Counted from the stretch's first letter, positions 1-25,183 are shown. The stretch is DNA of 64,000 nucleotides from Candidatus Woesearchaeota archaeon (GCA_020637435.1 JACJVW010000001.1:433060-497059), one strand, 5' to 3'. Numbers and translations are program-made. The notes: generated by a model not told the origin, from the sequence alone.

Positions 1-995
1 AGCCAGTTTCTATTGTAATGGTCCAAAGGCGGGTTGATCTCACCGGCAATCAGCATATTCGCGTCAAAGTATTGTCGTACTCGCCCGACGTCCATCCAGA
101 AACCTGCTTCGATGAGCTGAGCACCCTCGACTCGATGGTCACTGAAATCCCAGGCATAGACATCCATACCATCTCTGATTGCTTGAGGGATGATATCAAA
201 TCCAAAATCCCGTAGACTGTACAAAGCAGGATTGTCAATGACCTGTTCCTTTGAACCCATAGTCTTCGAAGCATCTCGCTCAAGCGCCGTTTTCAAAGCG
301 GCAGTCTTGAATGCATAGTTGCCCATCGATGCGAGGCACTTCCCCTCAAGATTAGGGTCATTATGAGGATTGGGAATAGGCGTGGGTCGCTCTGGTTTTT
401 CTTCAAAACCAATAATCCGGTTGTCTTCATTGACTACCAGTACACCATATGCACCGGCTGCCTCTTCTATAGATACTAATTTTGCGCAGACAGTAAGGTC
501 AGCTTGCTTGTGGACATGAGCCCGCTTAAGCTCACGTACATCCATAAAATAGACATGGTCACCTGCAAGTACATAGACATTTTCAGGCGCCCACTCATCT
601 ATAAACTCAATATTCTGCTCGACAGCGTTGGCGGTTCCGACATAACCTATCTTCTCTAGGCCAGGTTTCTCCTCGCTTTGAAGGATCTCGAATGTTCTTA
701 CTCCTTTAATTTCTGGAATCAGCCTAGACCAAGTTTCATTGAGGTAATTTCTGATTGACCTGGCTTTGTACTGAGTCATAACACCGATCTTATCGATACC
801 AGAATTGAATACATTATTTAGAGCATAATCGATTATGCGAAACTTTCCTGCAAAGGGTACAACTGGTTTGCCCCTCCAGTCCGTAAGTTCATAGAGGCGG
901 GAACCCCGCCCTCCTGCAAGGATTAATCCTACATCTTTACTCGTGTCTTTGTAGTCGCAATGACATGCATTCACAGTCGTTTCTAATGATACCAT
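1..995 (-). CDS. glgC: Glucose-1-phosphate adenylyltransferase (ADP-glucose pyrophosphorylase), C-terminus runs off the window start
   Basis: Reverse-complement translation from the ATG at 993-995 gives MVSLETTVNACHCDYKDTSKDVGLILAGGRGSRLYELTDWRGKPVVPFAGKFRIIDYALNNVFNSGIDKIGVMTQYKARSI..., the classic GlgC N-terminal nucleotide-binding signature (GGxGxRL, KPAVPF, RIIDF-like). The frame stays open to position 1, so the gene is truncated. A TATA-like tttatata at 1026-1033 sits about 30 nt upstream. Confidence 0.8.
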   Translation of the reverse strand, partial: MVSLETTVNACHCDYKDTSKDVGLILAGGRGSRLYELTDWRGKPVVPFAGKFRIIDYALNNVFNSGIDKIGVMTQYKARSIRNYLNETWSRLIPEIKGVRTFEILQSEEKPGLEKIGYVGTANAVEQNIEFIDEWAPENVYVLAGDHVYFMDVRELKRAHVHKQADLTVCAKLVSIEEAAGAYGVLVVNEDNRIIGFEEKPERPTPIPNPHNDPNLEGKCLASMGNYAFKTAALKTALERDASKTMGSKEQVIDNPALYSLRDFGFDIIPQAIRDGMDVYAWDFSDHRVEGAQLIEAGFWMDVGRVRQYFDANMLIAGEINPPLDHYNRNW

Positions 996-1086
996 TATTA
1001 TCAATCCCATGCAGTTTAAGGGTCATTTATATACTTTGTCGGAGAAATGCAGAATTTTAGAAGTAATCTTGACGCAACACCAGTTT

Positions 1087-3003
1087 TTAATGTCGGATCG
1101 TAACATTGATGACTTCAGGCTGTGCCCGAAGATTCTTGACGACAGTGTCCAGGATAGTGATGTCTGGTTCCTCAACCTCAAGGAAGATATTGAACAGATG
1201 CTCCTTGCCATGCCTGGTGTTTACGTTCCTGATCACCAGACGATTGTGCACAAAATAATCCAATACTTTAGTCAGGATACCTTCCTTATCCTCAAGCGTT
1301 ATGATAACCAGCATGCGCCGCCGGGGGATCTTCTTCCATTTGATAGGGATCTCCTTACCACCTTGGATGGAAAAGACATTGGCGCAATCTTTCCTGTGCA
1401 CAGTCACCTTCTTATCCTTGGTCTGGTATGCGACGATTGCGTCACCAGCCTCAGGCGAGCAGCATTTTGAGACCTTAAGCTGACCAAGGCGCTTATCATA
1501 GTCCAAAAGGTCAGGAACATGAGGCTCACCGAACAATGACTCTGCATCATGTTTAGTATCAGCCTCTATCGATATGCCAAGCTCACCGCGAATCTTGCTC
1601 TTGGCTTTTGTACTGACGACAAAGTTCAGCCACTGCCTTGATGGTTTGGCATTCTTTGAAGTGATGATCTCAACAACCTCTCCAGGCTTAAGCACGGTAT
1701 TAAGCGCGACCGCTTTACCGTTCACAAGAGCTTTAGAACAATGATTGCCTACCGCAGTATGTACCTCATACGCAAAATCGATAGGTGTTGCACCCTCTCG
1801 AAGCGTTATCGGATCCCCTTTAGGAGTGAAGACTACGATCTCATCCTCAAAAAGGTCAAGTTTCAGCGTCTCGATAAAATCTTGGGCATTCTCACTGTGC
1901 CGCCCCCATTCCAGGATCTGCTTCAACCACGAAATCTTCTGGTCAAACTTCTTGTCCCTATCTGTACCATGGTAACGCCAGTGCGCAGCGACTCCATCCT
2001 CTGCGAAATGATGCTGCTCCTCCGTTCTGATCTGCACCTCGATTATCTTGTTCAACGGTCCTTCAAGGCCAGTGTGCAAACTCTGATACCCGTTACCCTT
2101 AGGATTAGCAATGTAATCCTTGAATCGTCGAGGTATCGGCTTCCAAAGCTCATGAACGATACCAAGTGCCGTGTAGCAATCCTTGATATTCTTCACAAGT
2201 ATTCTGATTGCGATAAGGTCATAGATCTCATCGATGTCAAGATTCTTCTTGATCATCTTCTTGTAGATGCTCATAAAATATTTTGCACGCCCGGTGACCA
2301 GGGCATTCACCCCTTTCTTCTCAAGAGCCCCTTTGATTCGGTTGATGATCTCCTCCGTCGTCTGTTCCCGTTCAGCACGTTTCTGGTTGATCCGTTTTTT
2401 AAGATACTGGTACACTTCAGGTTGCAGATACCTAAGGGAAAGATCTTCAAGCTCACCCTGTATCCAACCCATGCCAAGCTTGTGCGCTATAGGAGCGTAT
2501 ATATCAAGTGTCTCCTGAGCGATACGTTGTCGTTTCTCAGGCCTAAATGTGCTGAGCGTCTGCATATTGTTCAGCCGGTCAGCAAGCTTCACAAGCATAA
2601 TCCTGATATCTTTGGTCGTTGCAAGCAATACCTTGCGCAAGTTCTCAGCGGTGTAATCTTCCTTCGTCTCAAAATGCACTTTATCGATCTTAGTAAGACC
2701 ATCGACGATGCCTGCAACATCAGCTCCAAATTCCTTCTCGATATCCTTGATAGTCCAGGACGTCTCTTCAACCACATCATGCAGCAATGCCGCGCTAAGT
2801 GTAGCGCTCCCCGCTTTAAGTTTCATAAGAATTTCAGCGACCCCAAGAGGATGGATAAAATACGGGTCACCCGTAGAACGTTTCTGGTCTTTGTGCGCCT
2901 CTTTGCTAACCTCGTAAGCCCTGCGAAGCATCTTAAGGTCAGGGCTCGGATTGTACTCCTTGACCCTCCCCAAAAACTCCTCACACGTCATCATCTGCGC
3001 CAT
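1087..3003 (-). CDS. Bifunctional (p)ppGpp synthetase/hydrolase, long RelA/SpoT homologue (HD, synthetase, TGS and ACT-like regions), 638 aa
   Basis: The N-terminus MAQMMTCEEFLGRVKEYNPSPDLKMLRRAYEVSKEAHKDQKRSTGDPYFIHPLGVAEIL matches the HD hydrolase domain. Downstream RelA/SpoT synthetase-like and TGS-like (GDVVEIIT-like) segments follow. A TATA-like atttttaaaa lies at 3032-3041, about 30 nt upstream. Confidence 0.85.
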   Translation of the reverse strand: MAQMMTCEEFLGRVKEYNPSPDLKMLRRAYEVSKEAHKDQKRSTGDPYFIHPLGVAEILMKLKAGSATLSAALLHDVVEETSWTIKDIEKEFGADVAGIVDGLTKIDKVHFETKEDYTAENLRKVLLATTKDIRIMLVKLADRLNNMQTLSTFRPEKRQRIAQETLDIYAPIAHKLGMGWIQGELEDLSLRYLQPEVYQYLKKRINQKRAEREQTTEEIINRIKGALEKKGVNALVTGRAKYFMSIYKKMIKKNLDIDEIYDLIAIRILVKNIKDCYTALGIVHELWKPIPRRFKDYIANPKGNGYQSLHTGLEGPLNKIIEVQIRTEEQHHFAEDGVAAHWRYHGTDRDKKFDQKISWLKQILEWGRHSENAQDFIETLKLDLFEDEIVVFTPKGDPITLREGATPIDFAYEVHTAVGNHCSKALVNGKAVALNTVLKPGEVVEIITSKNAKPSRQWLNFVVSTKAKSKIRGELGISIEADTKHDAESLFGEPHVPDLLDYDKRLGQLKVSKCCSPEAGDAIVAYQTKDKKVTVHRKDCANVFSIQGGKEIPIKWKKIPRRRMLVIITLEDKEGILTKVLDYFVHNRLVIRNVNTRHGKEHLFNIFLEVEEPDITILDTVVKNLRAQPEVINVTIRH

Positions 3004-3146: not shown

Positions 3147-3230
3147 CCGTACTATTGCTTCTTTCTCTTTCAAAACATCATACCTGAGAAACAATCTAAT
3201 TAACGTACACTAAAAGAGAAAGAAGTACGG
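3147..3230. repeat. Long imperfect inverted repeat (hairpin) immediately 3' of the tRNA on the minus strand
   Basis: Arm 3147-3170 ccgtactattgcttctttctcttt is the reverse complement of arm 3213-3230 aaagagaaagaagtacgg apart from a 6-nt bulge. That gives a 6 bp plus 12 bp stem with a 42-nt loop. Confidence 0.6.
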
Positions 3231-3359
3231 GCCTGATGGGATTCGAACCCACGGTCTACAGCTCTCTTTCACCCGGCAGAGTGTAAATGCCCTGCATATG
3301 GTATAGAAGGCTGTCGCCCTATATGCCCAATTTGGATTTCCAGGCTAGGCTACAGGCCC
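3228..3359 (-). tRNA. tRNA-Arg(TCT), about 132 nt, with a predicted anticodon-loop intron (~40 nt after position 37) and a second insertion or intron in the D-loop
   Basis: Minus-strand sequence GGGCCTG TA GCCT AGCCTGG...GGGC G ACAGC CTTCTA [TACCATATGCAGGGCATTTACACTCTGCCGGGTGAAAGAG] A GCTGT AGACC GTGGG TTCGAAT CCCAT CAGGCCC. The acceptor stem GGGCCTG/CAGGCCC, the T-arm GTGGG-TTCGAAT-CCCAT and the anticodon stem ACAGC/GCTGT with loop C-U-UCU-A are all present. The anticodon TCT gives Arg. The overlength D region implies a second intron. Confidence 0.7.
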
Positions 3360-3476: not shown

Positions 3477-4124
3477 TCAAATTTGATTTCTATTTCGGTG
3501 TGACAGGTAAAGAATAAGCAAACCCGGTATGATACTTGTCCAAATATGACCAAAGACAACCAGTAGAAAAAAGACAAAAGGATCATATATAGTCTGTTCA
3601 GCCTTCACCCAGAAAAAACCATGTACAAAATTGATATTCTTCTCCGGTGGCGAAACAAGATAAGTAATCGTAAAAACTAAAACCGATTCAAAAAATGCCC
3701 AAATCCCAACGTCCCACGAAAATTTTCGTATCCGTAGTATACAGTAGAGTGTCAAAGGCACAAAAAAAACATGACTAAGTGAGAGGAGATTTCTGATAAA
3801 CGGCCTCCCCTCTTCAAATAAGTATAGTGAATTCCCTGATAAACCAAATCCAAAAGCAAGATAGAGCAGCAGATCAAGCATCCACCACAATTGATACGTT
3901 GCGACCAGAACAAACTGCATACTCACCAGTTTCCAGTTCCTCCGCAGCAGCCCGATACCTGTTAGCAAGAGTACAATCCTGCAAAGGTACATAAGATTGA
4001 CCGCATCTGTATACAACAGTGTAACTACAACGTCAACAGCCCAAAAGAGGATGAAAAAATAACCTATCCACGCTAAGGCATCCCATTTCTTTGGAATGAA
4101 AATATTGAGCAATCTATGTAGCAT
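3477..4124 (-). CDS. Polytopic membrane protein of unknown function (215 aa, about 6 predicted TM helices)
   Basis: Long ORF with several hydrophobic 20-residue stretches (FFILFWAVDVVVTLLY, IVLLLTGIGLL, FVLVATYQLWWMLDLLLYLAFGF and others). No recognisable catalytic motif. Confidence 0.55.
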   Translation of the reverse strand: MLHRLLNIFIPKKWDALAWIGYFFILFWAVDVVVTLLYTDAVNLMYLCRIVLLLTGIGLLRRNWKLVSMQFVLVATYQLWWMLDLLLYLAFGFGLSGNSLYLFEEGRPFIRNLLSLSHVFFVPLTLYCILRIRKFSWDVGIWAFFESVLVFTITYLVSPPEKNINFVHGFFWVKAEQTIYDPFVFFLLVVFGHIWTSIIPGLLILYLSHRNRNQI

Positions 4125-5044: not shown

Positions 5045-5665
5045 ATGAAAGCACTAGTAGTACTCAGCGGAGGCATCACTCAGGACGGCCTTTTGGAGTG
5101 GACAAAAAATCGATGTGATAAAGCAGTAGAACTCTACACCGGAAACGAGCTCATCATCACATCAAGTGCATACACACCGCACAAACCCCCGTTCCTAAAT
5201 GATGGCAACCCCATCACAGAAGCGCGCCAGATGGCTGACTACATCTTAAGCAAAGGCGTGAAACCTGAACACATGCGCATCGAAGCATTTTCATTAGACA
5301 CCCTTGGCAACGCCATCTTCACCAGACAGCTCATCACCGAACCAGAACAGGTGCATGACCTGACCATCATCACCTCAAGCTTTCACATGCCCCGCTCAAA
5401 ACTCATCTTCGACTACGTCTTCAGCCTCCAACCAGTAGGTAAGTACAATCTCCAATATGTAGAAGTCAGTGACGGCGAACAAAACCAAAAAGCCATAAAA
5501 GCAAGAAGCGTAAAAGAACAGGAACGCATCGAACGCTTCAAAAAAACCATGGCAATAAACCAGGATTTAAAATCACTCATAACCTGGCTCTTCACCATCC
5601 ATAACGCATACAACTACGACCTCATCTATGAGAAATACGACAAGATTCTCGAAGACAGCTATTAG
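5045..5665 (+). CDS. DUF218 (YdcF/SanA/ElyC-like) domain protein, 206 aa
   Basis: MKALVVLSGGITQDG...ITEARQMADYIL...LDTLGNAIFTRQL...IITSSFHMPRSKLIF matches the conserved DUF218 pattern (VVLGGG..., E...S.nT.eNa, VTs.fHm.Ra). Confidence 0.7.
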   Translation: MKALVVLSGGITQDGLLEWTKNRCDKAVELYTGNELIITSSAYTPHKPPFLNDGNPITEARQMADYILSKGVKPEHMRIEAFSLDTLGNAIFTRQLITEPEQVHDLTIITSSFHMPRSKLIFDYVFSLQPVGKYNLQYVEVSDGEQNQKAIKARSVKEQERIERFKKTMAINQDLKSLITWLFTIHNAYNYDLIYEKYDKILEDSY

Positions 5666-6024
5666 GTAAGCGTCTTCACTAGCTCTTCCAGCCGAGGTTC
5701 TAGTGCGCTATTGTAGCAGACGATAGGTATTTCATAAGCAAGCGCCAGTTTGATCTCCTGCTCCATACCTTTTGAGATCACCGGACCGCAGAGCCAGACC
5801 TCATCCATCGTCCTGCGCTCAAAATGCTCCCGATTGGCAAGCATCCCAAGCTCCCGTTCCTCAACCAGATGGTCATCCAGATATTGCAGAGCGACAAGAT
5901 AAGGCGCGAACGGAATGATATCATCATTGTCCATATGCACATCCCGACATATCTCAAGGATATGTCGGACATTTCGTTCAACATTGCCGCTCACCTGATG
6001 AGCGATATATACAAGCTTACCCAT
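5662..6024 (-). CDS. Hypothetical protein, 120 aa, possibly a nucleoside-2-deoxyribosyltransferase-like Rossmann fold
   Basis: The ORF overlaps the upstream stop by 4 nt. A KLVYIAHQVSG N-terminal strand-loop suggests a flavodoxin-like fold, with no strong motif. Confidence 0.4.
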   Translation of the reverse strand: MGKLVYIAHQVSGNVERNVRHILEICRDVHMDNDDIIPFAPYLVALQYLDDHLVEERELGMLANREHFERRTMDEVWLCGPVISKGMEQEIKLALAYEIPIVCYNSALEPRLEELVKTLT

Positions 6025-8239: not shown

Positions 8240-8465
8240 TGATTTTCAGAAATATATGTTAAAATTTAGAAGATCAATCAGAAATCAGAAATTTGGGCCC
8301 ATCAATGAAAAAGAATCTTCAGATTTACGAAAATACAATCTTAATTTCTAAAGAAATATCTGAGATTTATAGAAATAATCTGATTTTCAGAAATTTTAAC
8401 GATGATTCAGAATTTTGCGCAGATTACTCCTTAAATTCAGAGCAAAATTCTGAAATTCAGAAACA
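8240..8465. promoter_or_regulatory. Cluster of at least 5 exact TCAGAAAT octamers plus degenerate and inverted copies, upstream of the abrB-like and giant-gene operon
   Basis: TCAGAAAT occurs at 8246-8253, 8278-8285, 8285-8292 (tandem) and 8387-8394. Variants ttcagaatttt at 8406-8416, ttcagag from about 8447, inverted ttctgaa at 8449-8455 and ttcagaaac at 8456-8464 end at the ATG of the AbrB-like gene. Confidence 0.6.
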
Positions 8466-8755
8466 TGAAGAAGTATCCAAAAATAGTGCAATGTGACAAG
8501 CGAGGTCAGATAGTCATACCTAAAGACCTCCGAAATGAGCTCGGCATAGAAGAAGGCACTGGTTTTTGGATGTATGCAATCACCGATGAAGGTATTCTGC
8601 TCAAGAAGGTCGAAAACCCTGAGCTTGGGGAACACACCGACATGCTCCATGAGCTCAATGACAAAGCAGACAAGATAGATCTCTCACGTGAGAATCTTGG
8701 ACAGTCCATCGAGGAATACAAGAAGAAGAGGCAGGGCAACCTGGATGTAATATGA
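8465..8755 (+). CDS. AbrB/SpoVT/MazE-family swapped-hairpin DNA-binding protein (96 aa)
   Basis: KRGQIVIPKDLRNELGIEEGTGFWMY is the AbrB-type N-terminal beta-barrel motif, followed by an acidic C-terminal tail. Its stop overlaps the giant ORF start by 4 nt (ATGA at 8752-8755). Confidence 0.75.
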   Translation: MKKYPKIVQCDKRGQIVIPKDLRNELGIEEGTGFWMYAITDEGILLKKVENPELGEHTDMLHELNDKADKIDLSRENLGQSIEEYKKKRQGNLDVI

Positions 8756-11700
8756 GGGGGCGCACGATACTTGGTTGGTGTATGATACTTTTCGTGCTAG
8801 CTTTAAGCCTCAGCGCTTCTGCCCAGGAGCTTACTCACACCCAAGTCGAGATCGGCAAACCGGTCACCTGGAAGAAAGTCGTTTCAGACGTACCTGCAGA
8901 CGGCACGCTCAATGTCTATGTTGACAAAGATGCCCGGGACGTCAGAGTGGATGGAAGATCTGACATCACTATCAAAGAAGCTTCGATATGGGACACCTTC
9001 GTCCAAAGCTTTGGCTCAGTGACAGGTTTTGCAGTAAGCGAAGCAGGTACTGAGATCGAGTTTGAAGCGAAAGAAGGTGACGCATACACTATTGTCTACG
9101 AAACAGAAGCACCTAAAGTCTACGAATCACAAAAACAAAAGGACGATAAGCTCATCAAAGAGGTAACCATCTCCTCAGACTATCATTATACTGACATCCT
9201 TAGTTACACAGACATTCCGGAAGTGGAAGCAGAGCAAATCAAACTCTACCATAAACAGGGTGGCATCTTCTTCAAAAATAAAATAGACATCACTTCCGAT
9301 GAATCTTACCGGGTAGAATTCATGGATACCAACGGCAATGGACTTATTGACCGTGTAAAATGGGTAACGCCCCACCTTTCCACCCAGGAATTCGAAGTGG
9401 AAATCACAGTCCTTAACGTTCAGAGCTATCCGCTCATAGGTGGCAACTGGACTATCCGGTTTACTACCGCAGGTACCGCAGACCTCGCTATAAGTGCCTA
9501 CATGGGTACAACCTATGGTGAGACGCTGCCGGATGACCTGTGGCCTATTGAACTTCGTTGCGATGATACTCCGTTGGCCCCTATCTTCAACGGAACTCAT
9601 GTCGTCTATGAGGACTTCTCCTGTGATGGTGTCGCCTACCACACAGTGAAGGTCCTCACAGGCGGTAAACATTACCAGGAATTGACCTTCGGCGATGCGA
9701 CAGCGCATGCACAAAACGATGCGGGCACCGTCACGCTCTCATTCCACCATGCGGCAGGATGTAGTGGCCCCTCCACGATAACATCCTCCTCACGGGCGAA
9801 TGAGAGTGATAGTATTTACATCCTGGTTTCTTATTCGAATGATGAGAACGGCGCTGAGAATACGATAGTGGACATTACAGGCTATGTATCTGGCTGTTCT
9901 CTGGCTTCACCCGGTAATTGCTTCGGCGATGACACGCCTGCTGCGAGCACATCATCCTGCTTCCTAAGCAATTTCCCCATTCCAACAGGCCTGAGTGATT
10001 CTGAATCTGTTACAGTATCTGTCCAGAATAGCACTGGTTCCGTTGCAACAACATCCTCTACGCTCTATATCAATCATGCCCCAGGTGTCGCGGTCGCAAT
10101 CACCCCTGCAAGTCCCCTCATAGGTGAGCAGATCACTTGCACCGGAACCGTAACAGACACGGATGCAGGAGACTCTTTTACAGCAAGCTATCTCTTCGAT
10201 GTGATGGGTTCAATTGTCGACAGCGGCAGTGTGGTCTGTTCAGGAACAACCTGTACCGCCACCTGGACTTCCTCAGGGGTCAATGATGGCGACACCATAA
10301 CCTGCAATATGACGGCAATGGACAGTAATGGACTTACTAGTCCTCAGGTCGCGTCATCTGCTGCCACATTCACCACAATAAGCATCAGTCCAACTTCAGC
10401 AAGTATAGAACGTATGGGTACGCAGACCTTCACGGTCTCTGGTAGTACAGCAACTCCTTTTACCTGGAACCTTTCGGGAACTCCCGTGAATGGTTCAGCA
10501 TTCAATCCCGCAAACCCTACTACCTCGTCTGCGACAGTACAGGGACTGGAAGTGGGTTCCTATGTAGTTAATGTAACTGACAACAACGGTGCATGGACCA
10601 CAGCCACATTGACTGTCACTGACACGAACGCTCCAGCGCCTGCAACGAATGTTGTCGCGGCCGACACTCCTGGCGACCAGGGGGATAATATCACGATAAC
10701 CTGGAGCATCTCTACCGATGACGGCCAGGGAGACAATGATGTAGCCAACTATTCTGTCCTAAGGTCGACCAGCCCTACATCAGGATTTGCTGCCGTTTCT
10801 GGAGCGCTTCCCCCAGGCACAGAGATTTTTGTCGACACAACAGTCCTCCCTGATGTCAGCTATTATTACCGGGTCAGGACCATGGACATCAGTGGCAATT
10901 TTGTCGATTCTGATATCTCCGGACCTGTCAATCTCAACGGCCAGCCCATCATGCAGGAGATAATCTATTACCCGTTAAGTCCGTCTGCCCAGGATAATAT
11001 AACCTTTGTAGCATTCGCGACAGATACCGACAACGAGACGGTGACGATGAACTACACGGTAGAAGTCACTGCCTTTGACGGAGGTACTAACTATCAGGAA
11101 AGCGGAGAGGCCTGGTGCTTCTTCCTTGGTCACGGCATGAGTCAATATGGTACGACATATGCAGAGCCGACAACTGAATGTACGGTAACACTAGCATCCA
11201 GCCACTTCACCAAAGCGGACAAAGTGACTATCACTTTCACCCCTCATGACGGACAGGAGGCAGGAGACCCGCTCTCGCTAAATGGATTCATCGTTATCAA
11301 CAACAGCAGGCCAAACGCATCCAATGTATTTGTCTCGCCGATAAATCCTAACCAGTCCTCTGTGCTCAGCTGTAATTATACGTTCACCGACTTCGATGGA
11401 GACATGGAGAATACGTCCCAGGCTCGTTTCAGATGGTACATCAATAATGAAGGACTCAACGACTTTGTACTTGTGCCTGGCTACACCAGCCGGACAATTT
11501 CAGGAATCTTCGACAAAGACGACATTATCAAATGTGCAGTACAGGTCAAAGACATTGATTCCAGTTGGTTAAAACAACCTCTATACGCATCCGCATATGC
11601 TACATCAACAGAGATCACAATAAAAGACAATGCGATCCCTCAGATCATAGATTACTGGATCTCTGCAAATAACACTAACCCTGCGGCACCAGGAGATGAC

Positions 11701-14700
11701 ATCTACTTCAATGTAAGCTGGGTCGACTACGAAGACCCAAGCGACCAGGCTAGGATGTACGTCTGTGACGCATGGGAAGATATTGAGAATCAGTACGATG
11801 GTGGAACCTCTGAGATCTTCTTTGGTGATGATACAGCAAATGCTGATCAAGAAGTAAGACTCTATACGAACGAGACTGGCCAGTACGTCTACACCCTGGC
11901 AATCAAACCTACAAAATTCATCGAAAACTCCTTTACTACATACAGTCCAGGCTCCACCGTCACCGCAGGAGATGTCTTCGTAGGCTCAGCACTCCTCGAC
12001 TTCCCTCCTTATTACACTTATTATGATGCTGACCACAGCGACACATATACCCTCGGTGAGTCCATTATATGGGATAATCAGTCCATGGGAACGAACAAGA
12101 CATACAACGCGCAATACGACGTAGTCATCTACGGTGATGAAGTGGTTGATGGCAGTTCTCTAGTCAGGTTCAACGAGAGCAATATCCACACCTTTTATGA
12201 CTCAGACAGCAGCGGGACTTACACTACAGGAGATGACATCTACCTTGACAGCGGTGCAACCCCTAATCAGGTTGATGCAGGCGATGTAAGGGTAAGTATA
12301 GTCTCCAACCGGCCCTCTGCGGAGACACTTTCAACCTCCTTCATTTACGACATCATCGTCCGTGAAGTGGACAATATCGGTGATACGACCGGTCTAGTCA
12401 TAGCAAGGGACAATGACAATACCTTCACCCTTGGAAAATACAACTATTTTGTCCCGCAGTATAATGCTCAACCACTTCCTGGAAAATATCTCATGTTCAC
12501 CATCTGCATAGATGTTGATAACGACGATACTTGCGACTCAGATTCGGACAATTTCAATGATATGGTCTTTTTCAAAGCAGATCCCGCACCAGGAGCAGGT
12601 TATCAGGCGTACAATGGAACGGGCTCAGTGCACTACAACCCGGATATCAGGTTCAACTATGGTGCAAGCGAAAGCCCAGGTTGTGCGGGAGCAACCTACT
12701 GCAGCACTCCCAATTCTCCTCTCAACGATATTTCCTGCACCTATGAAGCGGTCTTCGAAAATTCGTGGAACAACACAGTCAATCTCAAGGTCTGTGATGA
12801 GCACGATGCTTGCTCTGTCAACAGAGTAGCAAACTTCTTTGTGAATCACATCCCTATAATTTCAGATCTTACCATAAACAGCAGTATAGACGGTGTCAAT
12901 ATTGACGCAGTCAATAATTTCAGCACTAGCAGGAACCTTATATGTAATTACACTGCTTCAGACAGTGACCCGCAAGGCAATACTATCGGCTTAAGCAGCG
13001 TCATCTGGTTTAAGAAAAGCCAGAGCGCAAGTGTCTTCCAGCGTGCGATAGTCCCAAACAGCACTTTACTCGCGAACAGTAATACCGAACCAGGAGACCA
13101 GTGGATCTGCCAGATCACGGTGCATGATGATTTTGATAATTCGCTAGGGACCAACTCATCTCCTGTAACGATCCTAAGTGCGCAGGGTGACGAACTGACC
13201 ATCCTATCAGTTTTTGATGATTCCTCCTTGACCGCACCTGTACTGTTGGATGAAGACGTTACCATCGAGGTCTCCTTCCTCTACACGGGAACCGATGATG
13301 TCAAAGTCTATGTCTGCAACTCTTCGTCCATAACCTCGGGTGGCTGCCTTGATCACACCTACGCAGCCACGGATTTCGTCTCGGACAACCCGATCAATGT
13401 AAGCTGGGAGGCAGATGCTCCTGGAACACACAGATACTACGTCAAGGTCTGTGATGAGTCATTCAGATGTTCAGCGGTGGTAGGGACGTCTACTGAATAC
13501 AATTACACCGTCAATCAGCGTCCTATTGTCAACTCAACGCTCCTTACGACGTATACTGGTTCGACCAACTACACAGACGCTGACCCCCTCAACTGTACCT
13601 ACATAGGCAACGACCAGGATAGCATAGGTACGGGACTAAACGCGACCTACACCTGGTTCCTCAGAAGATCAGGAGGGGCGTTCCAAAAGATTGCATTACC
13701 TCCGACAACCGCAACGATCGCAGAATCACAGACTATTCTCGGCGATGTATGGATCTGCCAGGTTGACCTTTCAGATGGTTACCATAGCGCGGATGCGCTC
13801 AACAGCAGCCCCGCATTCATTCAGAGCCTAAGTACGGGAATTATCGGCATAACTGATGTGAACGATACAGTAGGCAGTGTCGTTGAGCTCGGAGATTCCA
13901 TCGACATCGACGTCTACTGGCAGTCTGCTACCGGCGATAACGCAAAGGCATTTATCTGCAATTCCACGAGAGTGCTCGCAAGCGGTTGTCTTGATGGTAC
14001 CATTATGGAGACGAGTTATACCTCAGCAAATCCTATCTCTGCATCCATCACTCCGACAATAGGGGGGTTGCAGTATTATTATGCCATGGTCTGTGATACC
14101 TCCTGGAACTGCTCATATGTCCAAAGCTTTGACAGCAAAGGCAATAGGTTGAATTACACGGCAAACACCCCCCCTGTCATCGGATATGTTACCGTCAACA
14201 CGACTACTGACGGACTTACCCCGGACGGTCTGCAGAATTACACGGTGGACACACACCTGATCTGCAATTTCTCCATCTCGGACCCGGACATGCTTTCTGA
14301 ACCAAGTTTTGAGATTGCATGGTACAAAAATGGCCAGAAAGTAAATTTCCCTTCAGTCACTGCGATTTCAAAATGGAATACGCAGGGAGGCGAACTATGG
14401 AGTTGTGGGGTCACTCCTATAGACGAATACGGAACTTATCCGGAAATGATTTCACAAAGTGTATTCATCACGGGCATCTCTAATGAAATTGTAGTAGTTG
14501 AGAATATCACTGCTAACTACAATGAGAGCAACCCTCTACTCAATGGACAAGCTGTAACCTTCAACCTAAAGGCGATGAGCCTCAACAGCGTCTCCTGGTT
14601 CGCATACATATGTAATACCTCAAACATAGACGTCACAGGCTGCTGGGATGACCAATTCGCAACAATATCGACTGCAACAGAGGAATCCACAGCATCCTAC

Positions 14701-17700
14701 ACCACAGTCTACGAAGATCACGGAGTGATACCTTATTATGTACTGATCTGTGATACCACGTTCAACTGTTCACAGGTACAGGGAGTTGACACTGCCCTTA
14801 ATTTCACGGTTAACCATCGCCCAGTCCTTACTTATGTGCGGTTGAACACGACAGATCTTACATCAAACTTCACCAGTGACCGCAATCTGATCTGTCAGTT
14901 ATCTTACAATGACCCTTACAGCTACAACAATGGCTACAACATTTCATACACATGGTACAGGAATGGCATCCTGCAGGCATACCCTAGTAGCATGGATGTG
15001 CTCTCCAACACACAGACACAGACGGACGATGAGTGGTACTGTGAAGCTCAGGTCAGCGACGGCTATCATTCAAGTGATGTGGTTGCCGCGGCATTTGTCA
15101 ATATCAGTGACTACGCGCCAGGTTCCGTCTGGATAACGAACTTGACGACAAACAGTAATTCCAGCTCTTACCTCAGGTACCCTTCCAATGTTACCTTTAA
15201 TATTACCTGGAACTCGACAGAGATTCTTGATGTGCGGGCATTTATCTGCAGCAATAGCAGTATCGGCCCTTCTGGATGTCTCCAGACTACTATCGCCCAA
15301 AGCGGATACACCCGCAGTAATCCGATAGAATTGACCTACCTAACAACCAATAATGAATCAGGACCTACTGACTACTATGTGAAGCTCTGTGACACCTCCT
15401 TCAATTGTTCAGGAGTCGCAGGCATTAGTATACCTCAATACTACTACATCAATCAACCCCCTATTGAGACCGCTGTCTGGATGAACACGACAGACGGAAC
15501 AGACAATTTCACCAGTGACAGGAACATCATCTGTAGATATACTGCTATGGACCGGGACGATGTAAATGCGAGCGACCCACTTATACCTGAATATTATTGG
15601 TGGGTGGGATCTACCGATGACAATATGGAGTTGGTGGAAACAAGCACAAGCACACAAGTACTGACAAACAACAACTATGAACCTGGTTACTATGTACAAT
15701 GCGGCGTTCGCACTTCCGATGGGATGCACTTTGGAGACGGAACTTTCAGCCAGGCACAACAGATAAGCACCGAAGTAGTAGAAGGGATAGTTATCTCAAA
15801 TGTCACCCACAACTCGCCAACAGAGACGCCGGTGACCGAAGGCAACGTTATCCTATTCTCCATCGACTGGTACAGCAGCTACGGCCTTCCTGTAAGAGCA
15901 CACATCTGCAGCTCACCAGACTTCAACTACAGTGGCTGCTATAACACTACTCTTGCTGCATCAGGTGGTTTCTCAAGCACAAACCCGCTCATAGTAAGCA
16001 TGGCCACTAATGGATCGGAGCCGACCATACAGAACTACTGGGCAAGGATCTGTGACAACAGTTACAACTGTTCAGAGCCGTTCCCTGAAGCAGGAATAAA
16101 TCTGAATGTATCCGTCAACCACCGACCTAATGCGGTGAATGTGACTGTCAGACAATTTGATCAGTACAGTACTACGGGATTGCTCATCTGCAACTACTCT
16201 TTTAATGACACGGATATGGACCCGGAGAACGCAACTTTAGCTACATTCCTCTGGTACACAGTAACCAACAGCGTCAAATCCCTTATACCAGGACAGAACG
16301 AAAGGTTCCTCGAGGACGCGTTCAGTTATGGAGATGAGATAACCTGTAGCGCAAGAGTCGCAGACAACCATTCAGTCAGCGACAATCAGTTCAGAGATGC
16401 CAATAATACCATAAGATTCAGCGCGATACCACCTAAACCCGTCCTTTGGAATATGCCCTTTGCAGTATCTGCAGCAACAGGTAATAGGATGATAGGGTAT
16501 TTCGGTATACCTAACGTCAATTACTCAGTCCACCTGCGGCAGGAATTCAATGTGACAACGCCCGTCACCAACACAACCTCTACGGATAGCAGGTACTTCG
16601 GTTTCGCTTTCCCGGTCTACAAGGCTGCCAATAAATCTGCGTTCGTCATAGTTCACCGCGACGATCTTGACCTGTTCCAGACTGGAAGATACATCTCCTA
16701 CGACAACCATAACCGGACATACTTTGCACGATACAGGATAACAGGCAACGAAGATCTCTTCGACGATACTTACAAGGTATTTACTTCGCCTGCACTGGAG
16801 CACAATATTACCTCCTCGACCGCGATTTTCGTCTACAACAGTACCTATCCTTCAGGATGGTTCAATATGTCATTGCCATCCTTATTCGTAGGTGAAAATA
16901 CCATCAGGATCAGGGGACTGTCATCCTATGGCAATGGACCTTACCTGAATCAGACCCTCTACCTTGATCTGGAGAACCCGACCATAAACATATCCAAAAT
17001 AGGCAACTACAGTTTCAGCCACATGTCGACCATCTACTGGTCCGTCTATGACAATATCTCCCTTAAAGACATGCTCCTCCAGGTTTCTAACAGTTCAGAA
17101 ATAGTCAACTACACACTCTACGATTACAACTTCAATGACACTGACACTCAGATAGTCTGCGATGGCAATCTGACAGACCAGGACTGCCGGGTGGAGATCT
17201 ACCTCAATAATAATACCCTGCACAACCTCACATTCACAGTCACTGACAGTTCAGGAAGAAGCACGACTGAAGTACGCTATGACTACGTCGTCAATACCTC
17301 AGTGCTCCCGGTCATACTTGTCTACCAGGGTTTCATAGATGATGCTCTTGACGAGCACATCCCCGCGACCATCGCTACCAATACAACATTCACCGCAAAC
17401 TGGACCTCTGATGCACATGCCATAACACGTTACTACGAAGTCAAGATAGTAGAATATGAAGGAGACCTTCTTGTCAAAGACATGACCAACTGGACTGAAG
17501 TTGGCAAAGAGAGAAATTGGACTGCGACCGTGCCTGCACGAAACCAGTATATCTACAAATTCCATGTAAGGTCTCTATACCAGGATCTAAGCTACAGCGA
17601 AGAATTTGTCAGTGAGGGCATGTTTTATTTCGTGGATGAAGCTCCGGTCTGCATTGATTGTGTCAGATTTGTAGGCACAGATAACGGCGGGCAGACATTC

Positions 17701-20700
17701 ACAAATTCACCAGACACCATGAAAGTGGCTTGGAACTTCACAAGCGAAGCTCCTATAACTCGCTACAGGTACGCGATAGGAAAAGTAAAGTACCCTTCGC
17801 CTGGCTACAACTCTCATGCGTACAGCAACGACTATCTCAATGATGAGATAACGATAATTAAGACCATGACCGAAGGTGATCAGTATTACGCCGCTGTCAG
17901 AGCGATGAACGAGAATGGCATCTGGAGCCCCTGGTCAATAACCTTGGGCAATCTTACCGTTGACTTGACAGCTCCACAGGGTGGTTCAATAACATACCCA
18001 ACAGGATTGGTCTCTACAAACTTCTCGGTATCCTACAACGACGGGTATGACGACATCAGCGGAATTAAGTCAAGAGTACTCTATCGTGCTACCGCTCAGT
18101 TGATCAATGGGCAGTGCCAGGGATTGTATGTCTACTACCCTGTCAACAGTACCATCATACCGGGGTCAGGAAGCTACACACAGGTCATAGGCAATGGTCT
18201 TTGTTATCGGTACAAGTACATGGTCACAGACTATGTGAACAACACAGCATCATACTTCAAGGGAGAACCGTACGATGTGAAGACAGACACTACCCCTCCC
18301 AATAGTTTCAGTGTCGTCCTGAACAATGGATATTACATCACCTCATCATCAACCTTCACCGTTGACTGGACAGACAGCGCAGATGCACAGTCAGGACTCT
18401 CTCATTACAGCTACATCATCACTGAGGATGACAAGCAGATAGGCAACTGGACTAACATTACAGTTGGCAACACAACAGTGACATTTGCTCAGGTAACCCT
18501 GCCAGATCCGAGGCACCAGGCAAGCTACAGAGTTATCGTAGTTGCTCACAGCAGGAACGGTCTGACGACCCAAGTCACAAGCAATGCTGTCGCATACATA
18601 GATATTGCACCTCCATCCCCTCTTGAGCTGCTGCAGTTTGAGAATCAGACAAATATCACTACTGATAATCTTGTTGATCAGGTGAACAACAATATGACCA
18701 ATATCACCTTCCGGGGTGAGAATGGTATCAGTTGTGTCGCTTCCGTCTACCCCATAGACTATGAGATGTACGATGTATCAAAAACATACCTGACTAACTG
18801 CTCAACGGCAAACGACAATGTAACATGCAGATTCAATACGACAGAGACAGCATACTACACAAGATACATCGTCTGCAGTGACTACGCAGGCAATATGCAA
18901 TTTGTAGATGATGCTCTCAATATTACTTGGAAAGTCGATTTCATAGGTCCTGACATCAATATGACGACCAGTATACAGGGCGAAGTGCTTGGCGAGATGA
19001 TTCTGTTCAACCTTAGTATTACAGACCTCACCGCTGTCGACACAGTCATCTATGAGATAGTAAACGCGACCAGCATGTCGCAGATATTTGACTCAGGTAA
19101 ACTGACCGGTGATGAGATTTACAGCCTACTGTGGAACAGCACTGAATACTTCGCAGGTCAGACCGAACTGCTTACTATCATAATTACAGCAAATGACACA
19201 AATGGTTTCATCCAGAAATTGTTCACAAACTTCACAGTCGATAACACAAGACCTGTCATCAATATTGTCAGTCCTAATCTCAACAACAGATTCTTCAACC
19301 AGAATTTCACGCTTGATGTGCGGGTAAGAAATCCCTTCTACAACACCTCGCTTGGGATCTACAGTATGAATGGCACAAAGATGCATAGCCTGTATAATGT
19401 AAGCAATGTGCTCAGATCAAGCTATGATTATGCAGGACTTGTCGCAACAGACAGCTGGCCTGATGGAAACTACACCATAAGGGTTAATGCTTCAGGAGTA
19501 AGCAATTCCATGAATAAGAGTCTGACCATATATCTTGACAGGACCGCACCATCTCACCTCCCTATTGTCAATCCAAAAGGTCCCGTCTACAATGATGCCT
19601 CAGTGCTCCTTTGGTCGTATTGGCCTATAGAATACAACTTTGTGGCTAACACCTGCGACATAGAAGAAGTACTTATCCAGCACAATGCTACCGGCACCAT
19701 GACCAACTATACAGTAGGGGCTACAGGCTACAATTTCAGTGTAATCATACCGCCTAGCCAGTTAGACAATCACGAGCAGATAGCATGGCTTGTGCATGCA
19801 AAAGATTTCAGCGGAAACTGGAACACAACTGAGCTAAAGACATTCACAGTATCCAACAGGGCTCCCTATCTGTCTCTGGTAATACCTGACCAGGACTGGC
19901 CCGTCAACATCAACAATTCTCCTGTTGAAGCAGCAATACATCTTATCGACCCCGACCAGGACACTCTTACTTTCAGCATCATCCAGCTTCCCGAGAAATC
20001 AAAGATATATGATGAATTGAACAATCCTTCGACCATAAGTGCGAATGACGGTGAATATGATGCGGTAACCTTCCTTGTGGCAAAGAACGCCAACGGAACT
20101 GCGCTTGAAAAGGCGACGACCAACATGCTTGGCAACCCTACATTTGAAGAGGGCAATATGACCTATTTGAATTCCTGGCAGGTCGTAGGTGAACCGCAGA
20201 AGAACTGGACGCTCAATATTGAAGGTAACTACAGTGTTATTGTCAATAGGAATCACTACTACATGCAGACTGTGCCGGTAACCCCTAACACAGAATACAC
20301 CTTGAGCGCGACCATGAGGTCAGTCAGTGGTACTACTCACGGCAGATTGCATGTTGATTGGCTCGATAGCACCCAGCAATACCTCGGTACCTGCCTCATC
20401 TGTGGGCTAGGTAATACTTGTGCCTTTACGCCTGAATTAACCGTGACACCGGAAAGAAAGTCTGCAAATATGACCAGTCCTTCCGGTGCGGTGTACGCTA
20501 GGATCTATGTTGACGCACAGAACAGCAGTTATACTGTAGTAGATGATATGCAATTCGAGAAAAGTAGCTTCGCTACATCCTTCGTCAATGGATCCAGAGC
20601 TGCAACATATATCGAGTATGATATTAGTTCGCACTACAATGATTCAGCGGGAACGATAGGATTCTGGTTCAGACCTTTCTGGAATACCTCATCAGATGAA

Positions 20701-23700
20701 GACCATCTGCTGCTGCAGATGTCAGCGGATTTCGCATTGTATGCTACCAAAGAAGAGAATGACTACATGCTCAGGCTAGGCGATTCCTCTACGTATACAG
20801 AAATGAATATTACTGGCTGGAATACTGATGACTGGCACTACCTGACTATAACTTATGCATCGACCATATCATGGCTCTATGTTGACGGAAATCTTATAGG
20901 AAGTTCATACAGCGATCCGAACAGTGTTACTACGTTGTATCTTGGTAAAGCCGCATCAGATTCCATCTACGCTAACGGAATATTCGACGATCTCATCTTC
21001 ATAGGAAAGACCTATAACGCGACACAGGTCCTACAGCTCAACACGAGCGGACCTGTGCTTTCATCTCCTAACATCAATTATACGATGAACTCCAGTAACG
21101 CAGTCATTTTCTATTCCTTCGACTACAACTGGTCCGGCAGTGAAGCCGCGTACATAACTGCAGATGATGGTTACGCTATTGCGGGAAGCAACGTCTTTGG
21201 ACTGACCGTCAATCCGCTCAATATAGCACCCGTCATAGCCCCTATTCCAAACCAGACTACTTGGGACAATCAGACGTGGTCCTATACGATAAACGCGACA
21301 GACGCAGACAACCATCCTCTCACCTACGTGGTAAATGCGAGCTGGATCGAGATCAACGAGAGCGGATACATGACATTCAATCAGTCACCTCTACTTAGAG
21401 GCCACTATGGTTTGAAGCTGACGGTCTGCGATAACCAGGATGAGATCAATAGCTGTGTCAATCAGACTTTTAATCTCACGATACTCTATACAGACATGGA
21501 CAGCGATGGAATCTCAGACACCTTTGATTTCATCACAGGCAATGAGACAGGAATAGTCACAAATATACCGATCACGATGATAATCGTGAACTCCAGCTAT
21601 TTCGACAATTCGACTAACACCACTTTCTTCCTTCCTGGTTCGACCAATATTAGCCAGTATTACGGAGGACTGGTGCACATTACTCTCAAGAACAGTAGCC
21701 ATGACTTTGTGGACTTTGATTTCATACTCAATGCAACATCCATCCTTGATCTCGGCAGCATAGTTATTGAAGTGAATAATGCGAACATGAGCGCGATAAG
21801 CGTAAGTGGCCTGATACTTCCAGTAAATATGACCAAGGCAGTACATCTGCAGAAGTATAACACTACCATCATGTCTGTATGCATCAAAGATAATGCGACC
21901 ACCAATATATCAGCAATATCAGTCAACTGCACCGCAGCCGATGAGATTCTCGTGCCTTGCGACAACCAGAACTATTCAGGTTACTTCTGCGAAGACAGGA
22001 ATACCACCTACAGAGTCTCTGGTCTCAACCATTCCGCAGTAAAAGAGCAGGCTGGCTGCACAGACAAAGACGGAGACGGCTACTTCTTTGGAAGTCTGTG
22101 CATAAGTTCGCCGTTGGATTGTCAGGATACTGATCAGAACAGATACCCTGGAGCTACTGATATCTGTGGAAACGGAATCGATGAAGATTGTTCAGGCGCT
22201 GACAAGAAGTGCTCAAGTAGCAGTTCAGGCGGAGGAGGGGGCGGAAGCCGGGGCGGAAGCTCAGGTTTCATCTCAAATAAGAAACAGTGCGAAGATGGCA
22301 AAGACAATGATGGAGACGGTCTTATCGACTTGCAGGACAACGGTTGCACAAAAGAGACAGATGACGATGAGAGCGACGAATGTGTCGAGAACTGGGTCTG
22401 TGGAAACTGGAATCTTTGTGTCGACGGAAAACAGACCAGATCCTGCTATGACACAAGTGAATGCAATACCTACTATGTCAGGCCGCACATGCTGCAGAGC
22501 TGTGAATACACGCCAAAAGTGATTGAGAAAGAGGTCACCTCATGTACTGATTATTCACAGAACTATGGAGAGACAGACGTAGACTGTGGCGGAGACTGCA
22601 AAGCATGCGGACTAGGCAAGAAATGCCTCTCAAATATTGACTGCGACTCTGGTTATTGTGATAGCCTGACCAAAATATGTTCAGAGCTGCTTACGGAACC
22701 TGTCCTGCCTACCTGTTCAGACATGATACAAAACCAAGGGGAAGAAGATGTTGATTGTGGTGGACCATGTGATTCCTGCAAGACTGAAAGTGCATTCTTC
22801 CAGTGGATACTCATGTTCGTCGTAGTGCTCGGTCTTCTCGGTATAGTCGCGGGAATCGCTCTGGCCGGACTGGAAAGCCGCCCAAGAAAAGAAGAACCCT
22901 TCACTGCTGAATCCCTCAAAGCGGCAGCTGAGGATACGGAAGGAAGGATATTCCTTGAATACTACAAAGGCACAGACAAAGAAAAGATCCTTCGCATAGG
23001 CAAAGCCCTTGGCATACCGAAGAAGAGAGTTGAAGACATACTGCACCTCTCCGAGTATGCCCTGCTCATGCTCAAAAGAGGTATAAGTAAAGATGTTATT
23101 GAGAGCAAACTGCTTTCAAGAGGCTGGCCAAAAGAACTCATCGAGCTCTTCTTCATCCACAACTTCATATTCAATGACCTTATGAAGAATAAGTCTATCA
23201 TCTACAAGAAGATAGAAGACAAACGTGCTGAAGGAAAGAGTGATGAGCTGATCGCCATCGAACTTAAAGAGGAAGGGTGGCCGGAAGACGTGGTCACCAT
23301 GGCTTTACTCTTTGAAGAGCATAAAGACACTCCAAAGGAACAGCCTGCGGAAGACCTGGTAGCGGATGAAATGAGCATCCTGCTGGAATTGCATAAGGGA
23401 GCTACACCGGCATCGATCAAATCGATGCTTGCTGAAAAGGGCTGGAAACCCGAAATCATCGACTCTCTTGCAAAACTTGAAGAATCCATAAGGTTGCCGC
23501 TCTCCCGCGGTACAGAACCGGATGAGATAATCAGACAGTTCACCTCCCAGGGTTGGCCTATGGAACTCATCGAGTTTGAGATACTCCTGCAGGATATCGA
23601 AATACGTGTACTTCATGCGATGAAGAACAATATTCCTGTTGAGCAGCTCATCCAGAGTCTGAAAAAAGAAGGTTATCCGGAGAATATGGTCAGGGAAGTC

Positions 23701-24562: not shown

Positions 24563-25183
24563 ATGGCTGAGTACTCCCATGAACTAAAAATACCAAAAGA
24601 ACGCATTGCTGTCCTTATTGGGAAATCTGGAGAAGAGAAGAAAAAGCTTGAAGAAGTGACCAAGACCAAGCTTAATGTCGACTCTACTGAAGGGGATGTC
24701 ACCATATCTGGAGATGATCCTATCACCTTATTCTCAGCCAGAGAGATGATCAAAGCTATAGGACGCGGCTTCAACCCAGAAATAGCTATACTTTTGCTTA
24801 AACAGGACTATGCTTTCGAGCTTATCAATATCCAGGATTATGCCAAGACCAAGAACGATGCTATACGGCTCAAAGGACGAGTTATCGGAAGTGAAGGAAA
24901 ATCCCGCAGAGTTATCGAGAGTCTCTGTGAAGTCTATATTTCTGTATATGGTAAGACTATAGGGATCGTAGGTGAGCTCGGCATGGTATCCATCGCCCGG
25001 CGTGCGATAGAATCATTGCTTTCAGGTAGCCCCCACGCCAATGTATATAGATGGCTGGAAAGGCAGAGACGAGAGGTCAGGCGGACCGAACTTGAAGGCC
25101 CGATAGAACTAAAAGAGGAAGTTAGAGATGGTGCAGACGACATTGGGGAAGAAGACCCCGGAGACACAGACAAAAGCTCATGA
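24563..25183 (+). CDS. KH-domain RNA-binding protein, archaeal Dim2/Pno1 homologue (two type-I KH domains)
   Basis: [22 protein letters not shown] carries the first KH GXXG loop and [17 protein letters not shown] the second. A TATA-like ttttaaaa at 24533-24540 sits about 27 nt upstream. Confidence 0.75.

Follow-up and report, generated by a model that had tools for sequence, protein, structure and literature searches.

Does any archaeon mount a stringent response through the alarmone (p)ppGpp? The question is raised by a 64,000-nucleotide stretch of DNA from Candidatus Woesearchaeota archaeon (GCA_020637435.1 JACJVW010000001.1:433060-497059), hereafter called the window, in which a long, multi-domain RelA/SpoT homolog (RSH) is encoded beside a gene resembling glgC, the gene for ADP-glucose pyrophosphorylase. 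In the classical view, archaea possess neither long RSH proteins nor (p)ppGpp (PMC3153485; PMC8646023). The original prediction for this locus, which shared that premise, regarded both genes as characteristically bacterial and offered two explanations: that stress and storage-carbon functions had been acquired together by horizontal transfer, or that the organism possesses genuine alarmone signaling. Its premise agrees with the classical survey, although an exception among DPANN archaea has since been published (PMC8407392). We consider it probable that the RSH is a bifunctional archaeal Rel, whose lineage entered from Bacteria in ancient times and has been inherited vertically thereafter, and that the GlgC-like gene is a separate gene lying next to it incidentally.

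Domains, active sites and Helical linker of the RSH protein

Open reading frame (ORF) analysis together with Pfam and NCBIfam searches confirmed that a long multi-domain RSH and a GlgC-like gene lie side by side, head-to-tail on one strand with 76 bp between them (Table 1). The RSH is 100% identical to NCBI MCB9362265.1, and Pfam recognizes HD_4 (1.9e-46), RelA_SpoT (5.4e-41), TGS (7.9e-22) and ACT_4 (1.2e-07) domains within it. With 675.1 bits, the protein exceeds the cut-off of the NCBIfam model TIGR00691 spoT_relA (499.2), but it falls below those of the proteobacterial equivalogs for SpoT (NF008303, 563.8 versus 947) and RelA (NF008124, 391.5 versus 728). Since both of these cut-offs are missed, the RSH is Rel-like rather than an ortholog of SpoT or RelA. 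The homology scores for this protein and for its GlgC-like neighbor are far beyond chance. An AlphaFold2 model of the RSH has a mean predicted local distance difference test (pLDDT) score of 83.9 and a predicted template modeling (pTM) score of 0.77, and its confidence drops only at residues 338-345 and 480-492. The structures that it matches best are those of B. subtilis Rel (6yxa), RelA on the 70S ribosome (5iqr) and SpoT (7qpr). The zinc-finger region aligns to the C-terminal region of chain I in PDB entry 8fr8, and the ACT/RRM region is modeled as a beta-alpha-beta-beta-alpha-beta fold.

Residue conservation was scored across 120 sequences of the RSH subfamily to which the protein belongs, with positions mapped by alignment to B. 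subtilis Rel. The hydrolase residues H51, H75, D76, E79 and D142 are invariant in all 120 sequences, as are the synthetase residues R239, K241, D262, R267, K295, D296, Y306, H310, E322 and Q324. The same is true of H415 in the TGS domain, of C514, C515, H536 and C540 in the zinc finger, and of W556. Position 80 is E in the window protein and either D or E in the subfamily. Two motifs of the SYNTH domain are conserved, namely G238-R-A-K241 and R-F-K295-D296. The second of these corresponds to RXKD, the basic type of motif that is typical of bifunctional enzymes, whereas RelA carries the acidic type, EXDD. In B. subtilis Rel, the equivalents of H75/D76, D262, E322 and H415 are H77/D78, D264, E324 and H420, respectively, and H415 also corresponds to H432 of E. 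coli RelA, the histidine that senses the 3′-CCA end of tRNA. For B. subtilis Rel it has been reported that the D264G substitution abolishes synthesis and that the CCA end of tRNA is no longer recognized upon H420E substitution (PMC7797070).

As judged from these invariant positions, the subfamily is under purifying selection both at its two active sites and at the residues predicted to contact tRNA and the ribosome, and the RSH does not have the appearance of a stray gene. Most likely, the protein is a bifunctional Rel that would both make and degrade (p)ppGpp. The original prediction had proposed that the catalytic residues of both activities be inspected, and their invariance, along with that of the regulatory residues, makes genuine alarmone signaling the better supported of its two explanations at the level of sequence.

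A departure from bacterial Rel proteins lies between the TGS domain and the zinc finger. The helical linker that joins them measures ~33 aa in the subfamily versus ~110 aa in bacteria, and its length is strictly bimodal, ranging from 28 to 42 aa in 86 DPANN-type sequences and from 101 to 131 aa in 70 bacterial ones. Approximately 81 alignment columns are occupied by bacteria only, and all of them follow residue 492-498, between the TGS domain and the zinc finger. The remnant of the Helical domain is poorly conserved, and pLDDT is low at residues 480-492. Family annotations of the RSH relatives include PF19296 (RelA_AH_RIS) in the case of bacterial matches and lack it in every short form. Thus, sequence comparison indicates that the subfamily has lost ~75 residues of the Helical domain while the TGS histidine, the zinc finger and the ACT/RRM domain have been kept.

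On its own, the TGS domain of B. subtilis Rel does not form a stable complex with tRNA, and a fragment comprising the TGS and Helical domains binds it specifically (PMC7797070). The archaeal protein might either dock on the archaeal ribosome and its tRNA in a different geometry or be regulated off the ribosome in the manner of SpoT. Under the latter alternative, metabolites or partner proteins would act through the TGS and ACT domains, or the enzyme would serve mainly as a hydrolase. This possibility gains from the requirement for the Helical domain in specific tRNA binding by B. subtilis Rel (PMC7797070), given that ~33 poorly conserved residues are present here, and from a template modeling (TM) score of ~0.5 between the predicted full-length structure and SpoT (7qpr). 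We nonetheless regard it as rather unlikely, because H415 and the Cys and His residues of the zinc finger, which are tRNA or ribosome contacts in bacterial RelA/Rel, are invariant throughout the 120 sequences, as are the synthetase residues. The invariance of this histidine and of the Cys/His set leads us to favor sensing that is linked to tRNA. In the mechanism that we propose, starvation would be signaled by deacylated tRNA, probably at the archaeal ribosome and in an altered geometry, and this sensing would switch the RSH between its hydrolase and synthetase states.

Relatives and origins of the RSH and of its GlgC-like neighbor

In a search of 5.8 billion proteins, the best 120 RSH matches range in length from 614 to 680 aa and share 50-64% identity with the window protein, and those that are named all belong to Nanobdellota, Nanoarchaeia, Nanoarchaeota or Woesearchaeota. 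The closest relatives constitute hundreds of proteins of ~630-650 aa, the named ones deriving from metagenome-assembled genomes of Nanoarchaeota/Woesearchaeota, and a second group of short-form RSHs likewise includes proteins named Nanoarchaeota and Nanoarchaeia. Every homolog context that was checked is archaeal and partly syntenic with the window. At one such locus (L004), the order giant protein, MazE-like protein, RIO1, ParA and RSH is the same as in the window, and at another (L090) the order is KH, Top6B, Top6A and RSH. The RSH of L006 is accompanied by LonB, TrmB, Kae1 and Cdc6, and that of L093, which represents the second short-form group, by NAC, Sec61-beta, ribosomal protein S2 and Cdc6.

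Contigs that share several genes with the window permit the divergence of the RSH to be compared with that of core genes. Identity to the window is 61-63% for the RSH, 68.5% for RIO1, 68.7% for ParA, 68% for KH, 69% for Top6B and 78% for Top6A. The divergence of the RSH has thus kept pace with that of core genes, as vertical inheritance within the lineage would predict. Membership in a large archaeal clan and co-divergence with core genes contradict a local horizontal acquisition of the RSH, and the original prediction itself had named vertically inherited archaeal homologs as the outcome that would speak against its proposal. No conserved neighbor of the RSH was found among the relatives' loci examined. 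A gene for deoxyhypusine synthase neighbors the RSH in divergent orientation in L004 (4898-5836) and L088 (794-1708) only and is absent from this position in the window; with just two loci, no association is claimed.

The source is a DPANN archaeon, tiny and of symbiotic type, of the Nanoarchaeota/Woesearchaeota radiation (GTDB Nanobdellota), and the archaeal context perceived earlier is borne out by genes for Topo VI B/A, aIF5A, archaellin, RIO1, a KH/Dim2-like protein and a PAN-like AAA ATPase elsewhere in the window. That a bacterial fragment was joined to an archaeal contig during assembly or binning is conceivable for a source that is a metagenome assembly, particularly as the GlgC-like gene has no archaeal relatives among its matches, but we judge this explanation to be extremely improbable. 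Archaeal genes flank the RSH-GlgC pair on both sides within one contig: SecD/F and a type IV pilus-like ATPase lie beyond the GlgC-like gene, and an insert-bearing tRNA, RIO1 and Topo VI lie on the other side. The NCBI contig carrying the RSH extends over 782 kb, and an identical RSH is present on three contigs, two of which (not displayed here) are reported with mostly the same neighboring genes. A/T-rich, TATA-like elements precede both genes. The G+C contents of the RSH (0.473) and of the GlgC-like gene (0.466) fall inside the host range, and their codon-usage distances fall within the range of 28 neighboring genes. The codon usage of both genes is thus host-like, so the comparison with flanking genes that had been proposed earlier yields no foreign signal, and recent horizontal transfer or a chimera, judged by composition, was rejected.

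Trees were built against a bacterial reference set of at least 80 long RSHs, which was obtained by a profile search of species-representative genomes with the RSH alignment. The matches listed in those genomes are bacterial loci only, with best-segment identities of 36-52% and stop-free frames of ~700 aa or more. A neighbor-joining tree of 120 DPANN-type and 80 bacterial sequences separates the two sets cleanly, with a stem of 0.20 and support from 50/50 bootstraps. When linker columns were excluded, 86 short-linker and 70 long-linker sequences still separated in 29/30 bootstraps. A wider survey recovered 38,377 relatives among 1.84 billion cluster representatives, in which all forms with a linker of 31-44 aa lie together, next to the root.

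One explanation of this topology is that the long RSH dates back to the last common ancestor of Archaea and Bacteria, with loss from all other archaea. Reciprocal monophyly of the DPANN-type and bacterial sequences and a midpoint root on the DPANN stem would be expected under such a scenario, which we nevertheless find improbable. It requires many losses, because long RSHs were found in 36/41 bacterial phyla and in no archaeon in a 2011 survey (PMC3153485) and since then, according to the accessible parts of a later study, only in some DPANN lineages (PMC8407392). In addition, the mean neighbor-joining distance from DPANN to bacterial sequences (1.01) only modestly exceeds that among the sampled bacteria (0.79), and identity to B. 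subtilis Rel reaches 46% in a structural alignment, as would suit a lineage that diverged inside the bacterial radiation and has a long stem. The same phylogenetic distribution is the ground on which the direction of transfer is taken to be from Bacteria.

Thus, we propose that the RSH subfamily (~630-650 aa) would have entered a DPANN ancestor from Bacteria long ago and would since have been inherited vertically within DPANN, with Rel proteins of Firmicutes being the most similar by score. We infer the direction and age of this transfer rather than reading them from the trees. The nearest bacteria by score or distance are all Firmicutes (Lachnospiraceae, Syntrophomonadaceae, Halanaerobiales, Mitsuokella and Fimadaptatus), yet in the neighbor-joining tree the DPANN clan branches at the base of the sampled bacteria as a whole, and the naming of a bacterial donor was accordingly abandoned.

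The GlgC-like gene has a different history. The full gene, of which only the 5′ portion lies in the window, encodes 457 aa (L001 11994-13367 on the source contig). Its product matches NTP_transferase (PF00483, 2.3e-47), Hexapep_GlmU and left-handed beta-helix (LbH) models, the best NCBIfam models for the full-length protein are all annotated as glucose-1-phosphate adenylyltransferase, and its best PDB match, 5w5r, was deposited under the same name. The protein combines a nucleotidyl-transferase fold bearing the GGxGxRL motif set with a C-terminal left-handed beta-helix. Alignment to 5w5r reveals that LAGGRGSRL, GDH, EKP and W-x-DVG are retained, and we take GGxGxRL, GDH, EKP and WxDVG to be its catalytic motifs. 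The enzyme probably makes an NDP-glucose for the synthesis of alpha-glucan or another glycan. No GlgA, GlgB or GlgP was seen in the 74 kb of the source contig that was read. DPANN glycogen synthases are of the uncharacterized glycosyltransferase 3 (GT3) type (PMC11046441).

Besides one 100% identical fragment, the non-self matches of the GlgC-like protein among the 5.8 billion proteins are 37-42% identical, and the named ones are all bacterial (Gammaproteobacteria, Zetaproteobacteria and other Pseudomonadota). Two of the top matches are encoded in bacterial contexts, one with G6PD, glucokinase and FolC and the other with MalQ, glycogen phosphorylase and Lnt. A GlgC gene lies beside the RSH in none of six relatives (L002, L004, L006, L088, L089 and L090), and a conserved RSH-GlgC module was rejected on that basis. 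With bacterial best matches at ~40% identity and no GlgC at the relatives' RSH loci, the gene is an orphan specific to this lineage and bacterial (proteobacterial-like) in type, which lies next to the RSH only incidentally.

These findings bear on the possibility that the RSH and GlgC-like genes were recently transferred together from one bacterium as a small stress and storage island. Their tight spacing on a common strand, the typically bacterial nature of both families, and the fact that synteny with L004 stops right at the 3′ side of the RSH could all be accommodated by such an event. We consider it highly improbable, however, since the nearest relatives of the RSH are archaeal and syntenic and the gene co-diverges with core genes, since the nearest bacteria differ (Firmicutes for the RSH, Proteobacteria for GlgC), since the pair recurs in 0/6 relatives, and since both genes are host-like in codon usage and G+C content. 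The idea of horizontal transfer in the original prediction therefore stands as far as the bacterial type of both genes is concerned, for which an ultimately bacterial origin is likely as the most economical reading; the joint acquisition of stress and storage functions is not upheld, as the RSH belongs to an archaeal clan and the GlgC-like gene is an orphan.

Several observations weigh against the interpretation of the RSH as a bifunctional, anciently acquired archaeal Rel with an unrelated GlgC-like neighbor. Residue 145 of the window RSH (2569-2571, minus strand) is Asn, which converts the hydrolase motif DRLHNM to DRLNNM. The 28 further sequences of the first alignment have His at this position, as do at least 90% of those in the 120-sequence alignment. 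The H145N change is peculiar to the window protein and might tune hydrolase activity. Because the Helical domain is required for tRNA binding in B. subtilis, the ~33-aa remnant may not support the bacterial mechanism. Most of the metagenomic homologs carry no taxon name, and the taxonomy of the short forms rests on a named minority and on gene contexts. The trees are distance-based with limited bacterial sampling, and, with the midpoint root falling on the DPANN stem, they do not demonstrate nesting within Bacteria, the direction of transfer or the donor. Finally, the GlgC-like protein scores below curated cut-offs (NF001947, 338.5 versus 470; TIGR02091, 311.8 versus 424.9). The sole archaeal NDP-sugar pyrophosphorylase found in the literature, from Haloarcula japonica, is specific for GDP-glucose (PMC11046441).

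A broader proposal, which we advance tentatively, is that the DPANN Nanoarchaeia possess an "archaeal Rel" subfamily of single origin, vertically inherited and catalytically intact, that would have lost about three quarters of the Helical domain and become adapted to detect uncharged tRNA on the ribosomes of archaea. If this proposal is true, a real (p)ppGpp stringent response would operate in a part of the Archaea, a domain in which the alarmone has never been detected.

Other features of the window

The features surrounding the RSH are compiled in Table 1. The TATA-like element TTTTAAAAATAT upstream of the RSH would suit an archaeal promoter followed by a short leader or none. For the GlgC-like gene, the element TATATAAAT in the spacer may represent its own promoter, or the gene may be co-transcribed with the RSH.

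Table 1. Features at and near the RSH gene in the window, with positions counted from its first letter
Feature	Position	Strand	Basis
GlgC-like NDP-glucose pyrophosphorylase (putative), N-terminal 336 aa of 457 aa	3-1010	-	ATG at 1010; continues past window start
RSH-GlgC spacer, 76 bp; A/T-rich TATA-like TATATAAAT 15-23 nt upstream of the GlgC ATG	1011-1086	-	Direct sequence reading
Long RSH (Rel-type, predicted bifunctional (p)ppGpp synthetase/hydrolase), 638 aa; DPANN short-linker subfamily	1087-3003	-	ORF, Pfam, TIGR00691
ACT/RRM domain, residues 568-635	1099-1302	-	PF13291 ACT_4, 32.8 bits versus cut-off 27
Zinc-finger/RIS domain, residues ~510-556	1336-1476	-	Conserved Cys/His; PF28438 RelA_RIS, precomputed
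Helical (AH) domain remnant, residues ~474-509	1477-1584	-	Missing alignment columns, linker lengths, low pLDDT
TGS domain, residues 389-448	1660-1839	-	Pfam TGS, alignments
SYNTH domain, residues 238-346	1966-2292	-	Pfam RelA_SpoT, alignments
HD (hydrolase) domain, residues 29-178	2470-2919	-	Pfam HD_4, alignments
TATA-box-like TTTTAAAAATAT, 20-31 nt upstream of the RSH start codon	3023-3034	-	Direct sequence reading
tRNA-Arg(UCU) with two inserts	3228-3359	-	Rfam E-value scan; ARAGORN after in silico insert removal

The intron-containing archaeal tRNA noted in the original prediction was recovered as a tRNA-Arg gene. Neither ARAGORN in its default mode nor Rfam at the gathering threshold found a tRNA at 3228-3359, and the intron mode of ARAGORN gave spurious calls of a tRNA-Stop with a 1396-nt intron and of a tRNA-Val, which were discarded. 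The Rfam tRNA model matches 3228-3328 with 28.3 bits (gathering score 29; E = 0.0021) and a 42-nt insertion in the anticodon loop. Once two inserts had been removed in silico, ARAGORN called tRNA-Arg(TCT). The first insert comprises 40 nt after position 37 (3264-3303), and the second comprises ~13-21 nt in the D-arm (about 3323-3343), with boundaries that are ambiguous because GGGC occurs twice. In the predicted fold, the anticodon stem extends into the insert with small bulges, and no canonical 3-4-3 bulge-helix-bulge motif is evident.

A 215-aa ORF at 3477-4124 (-) appears hydrophobic by eye, which might suggest a membrane role, and has no Pfam match. At 5045-6024, genes encoding DUF218 (+) and DUF7768 (-) proteins are arranged tail to tail between those for an OGG-like glycosylase and ParA. 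A giant ORF of 5078 aa at 8752-23988 (+) has a weak Cu-binding_MopE match, and directly before it, with a 4-nt overlap at its start, is a MazE/AbrB-like ORF of 96 aa (8465-8755, +). The relative L004 carries the same combination of small ORF and giant ORF (4040 aa there), which makes this a conserved pairing. Another giant ORF, exceeding 5679 aa, begins at 46963 (+) and continues past the window end at 64000. An ORF of 185 aa in the phage-integrase family (46451-47008, +), apparently a fragment, ends just within the 5′ region of this second giant ORF. The KH/Dim2-like, Top6B and Top6A genes form a cluster at 24563-27928 (+), in which the KH ORF shares 56 nt with the Top6B ORF, and this cluster is conserved in L090 (1440-4806). 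It lies directly upstream of the RSH in L090 and ~21 kb away from it in the window, a difference in distance that indicates rearrangement of the genome around a common gene set. An 891-aa protein of the UPF0182 family is encoded at 39848-42523 (-; Pfam, 908 bits).

Comparison with known systems

RelA/SpoT proteins have been reported from DPANN genomes previously. The accessible text of Li et al. 2021 gives frequencies of 69% in Diapherotrites, 41.7% in Woesearchaeota, 21.3% in Pacearchaeota and 19% in Nanoarchaeota and predicts a bacterial origin for these genes (PMC8407392). The RSH described here represents the same phenomenon, and the protein had already been deposited and annotated as MCB9362265.1. 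With RelA/SpoT already published for DPANN, together with its bacterial origin, and with the gene annotated, we regard the RSH as a well-documented new member of a known phenomenon. In those portions of PMC8407392 that are accessible, presence and inferred origin are treated, and domain architecture, the shortened Helical domain, residue conservation and synteny were not found. Beyond that study, no paper linking (p)ppGpp to these DPANN lineages was found in the literature searched. A named archaeal subfamily of long RSHs was likewise not found in the RSH classification papers, the accessible text of which leaves the 13 long-RSH subfamilies unlisted. The aspects for which no description was found are limited to the clan structure and the shortening of the Helical domain, and the linker is possibly the only new point.

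Small RSHs are also known from archaea, and they include the small alarmone synthetase (SAS) divRel and the small alarmone hydrolases (SAH) Mesh1-L and pbcSpo in Methanosarcinales and Natronomonas, which have been ascribed to horizontal transfer from Bacteria (PMC3153485). Those described by Atkinson et al. 2011 are sporadic, single-domain proteins, whereas the window RSH is a multi-domain protein within a large, vertically inherited archaeal clan. The window thus supplies a concrete and well-assembled example of the DPANN exception and places that exception within a conserved archaeal subfamily. The existence of a stringent response in any archaeon can now be addressed with one clonable protein of 638 aa.

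With bacterial GlgC enzymes (5w5r/3brk and 5l6s, deposited as glucose-1-phosphate adenylyltransferase), the neighboring protein has in common an NTP_transferase domain followed by a C-terminal left-handed beta-helix. We take these structures to be of the A. tumefaciens and E. coli enzymes. The GlgC-like protein differs from them in being only ~40% identical to any non-self sequence among the 5.8 billion proteins, in carrying extra insertions and in scoring below curated cut-offs, and it adds little beyond another cross-domain orphan.

The E. coli RelA and SpoT proteins share the long RSH architecture, as reflected in structural matches to ribosome-bound RelA (5iqr and 5kpv) and to full-length SpoT (7qpr). 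Compared with E. coli RelA, the window RSH has an intact HD site and carries RXKD in place of EXDD. Its closest counterparts are bacterial Rel proteins such as those of B. subtilis (6yxa) and S. equisimilis (RelSeq, 1vj7), with which it shares the order HD, SYNTH, TGS, helical linker, zinc finger and ACT/RRM. Structural alignment with B. subtilis Rel (6yxa) yields 46% identity over 477 columns, the sequence match amounts to 491 bits over residues 3-472, and the hydrolase H/D, the synthetase D/E, the RXKD motif and the TGS histidine are all kept. Unlike bacterial Rel, however, the window RSH is archaeal, its Helical domain is reduced from ~110 to ~33 aa with PF19296 absent, its clan is separate from 80-150 bacterial sequences, and it would need an archaeal ribosome for docking. 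A related question is whether a sensor evolved for the bacterial ribosome can be made to work on the archaeal one, and for this the shortened Helical domain offers a specific structural hypothesis.

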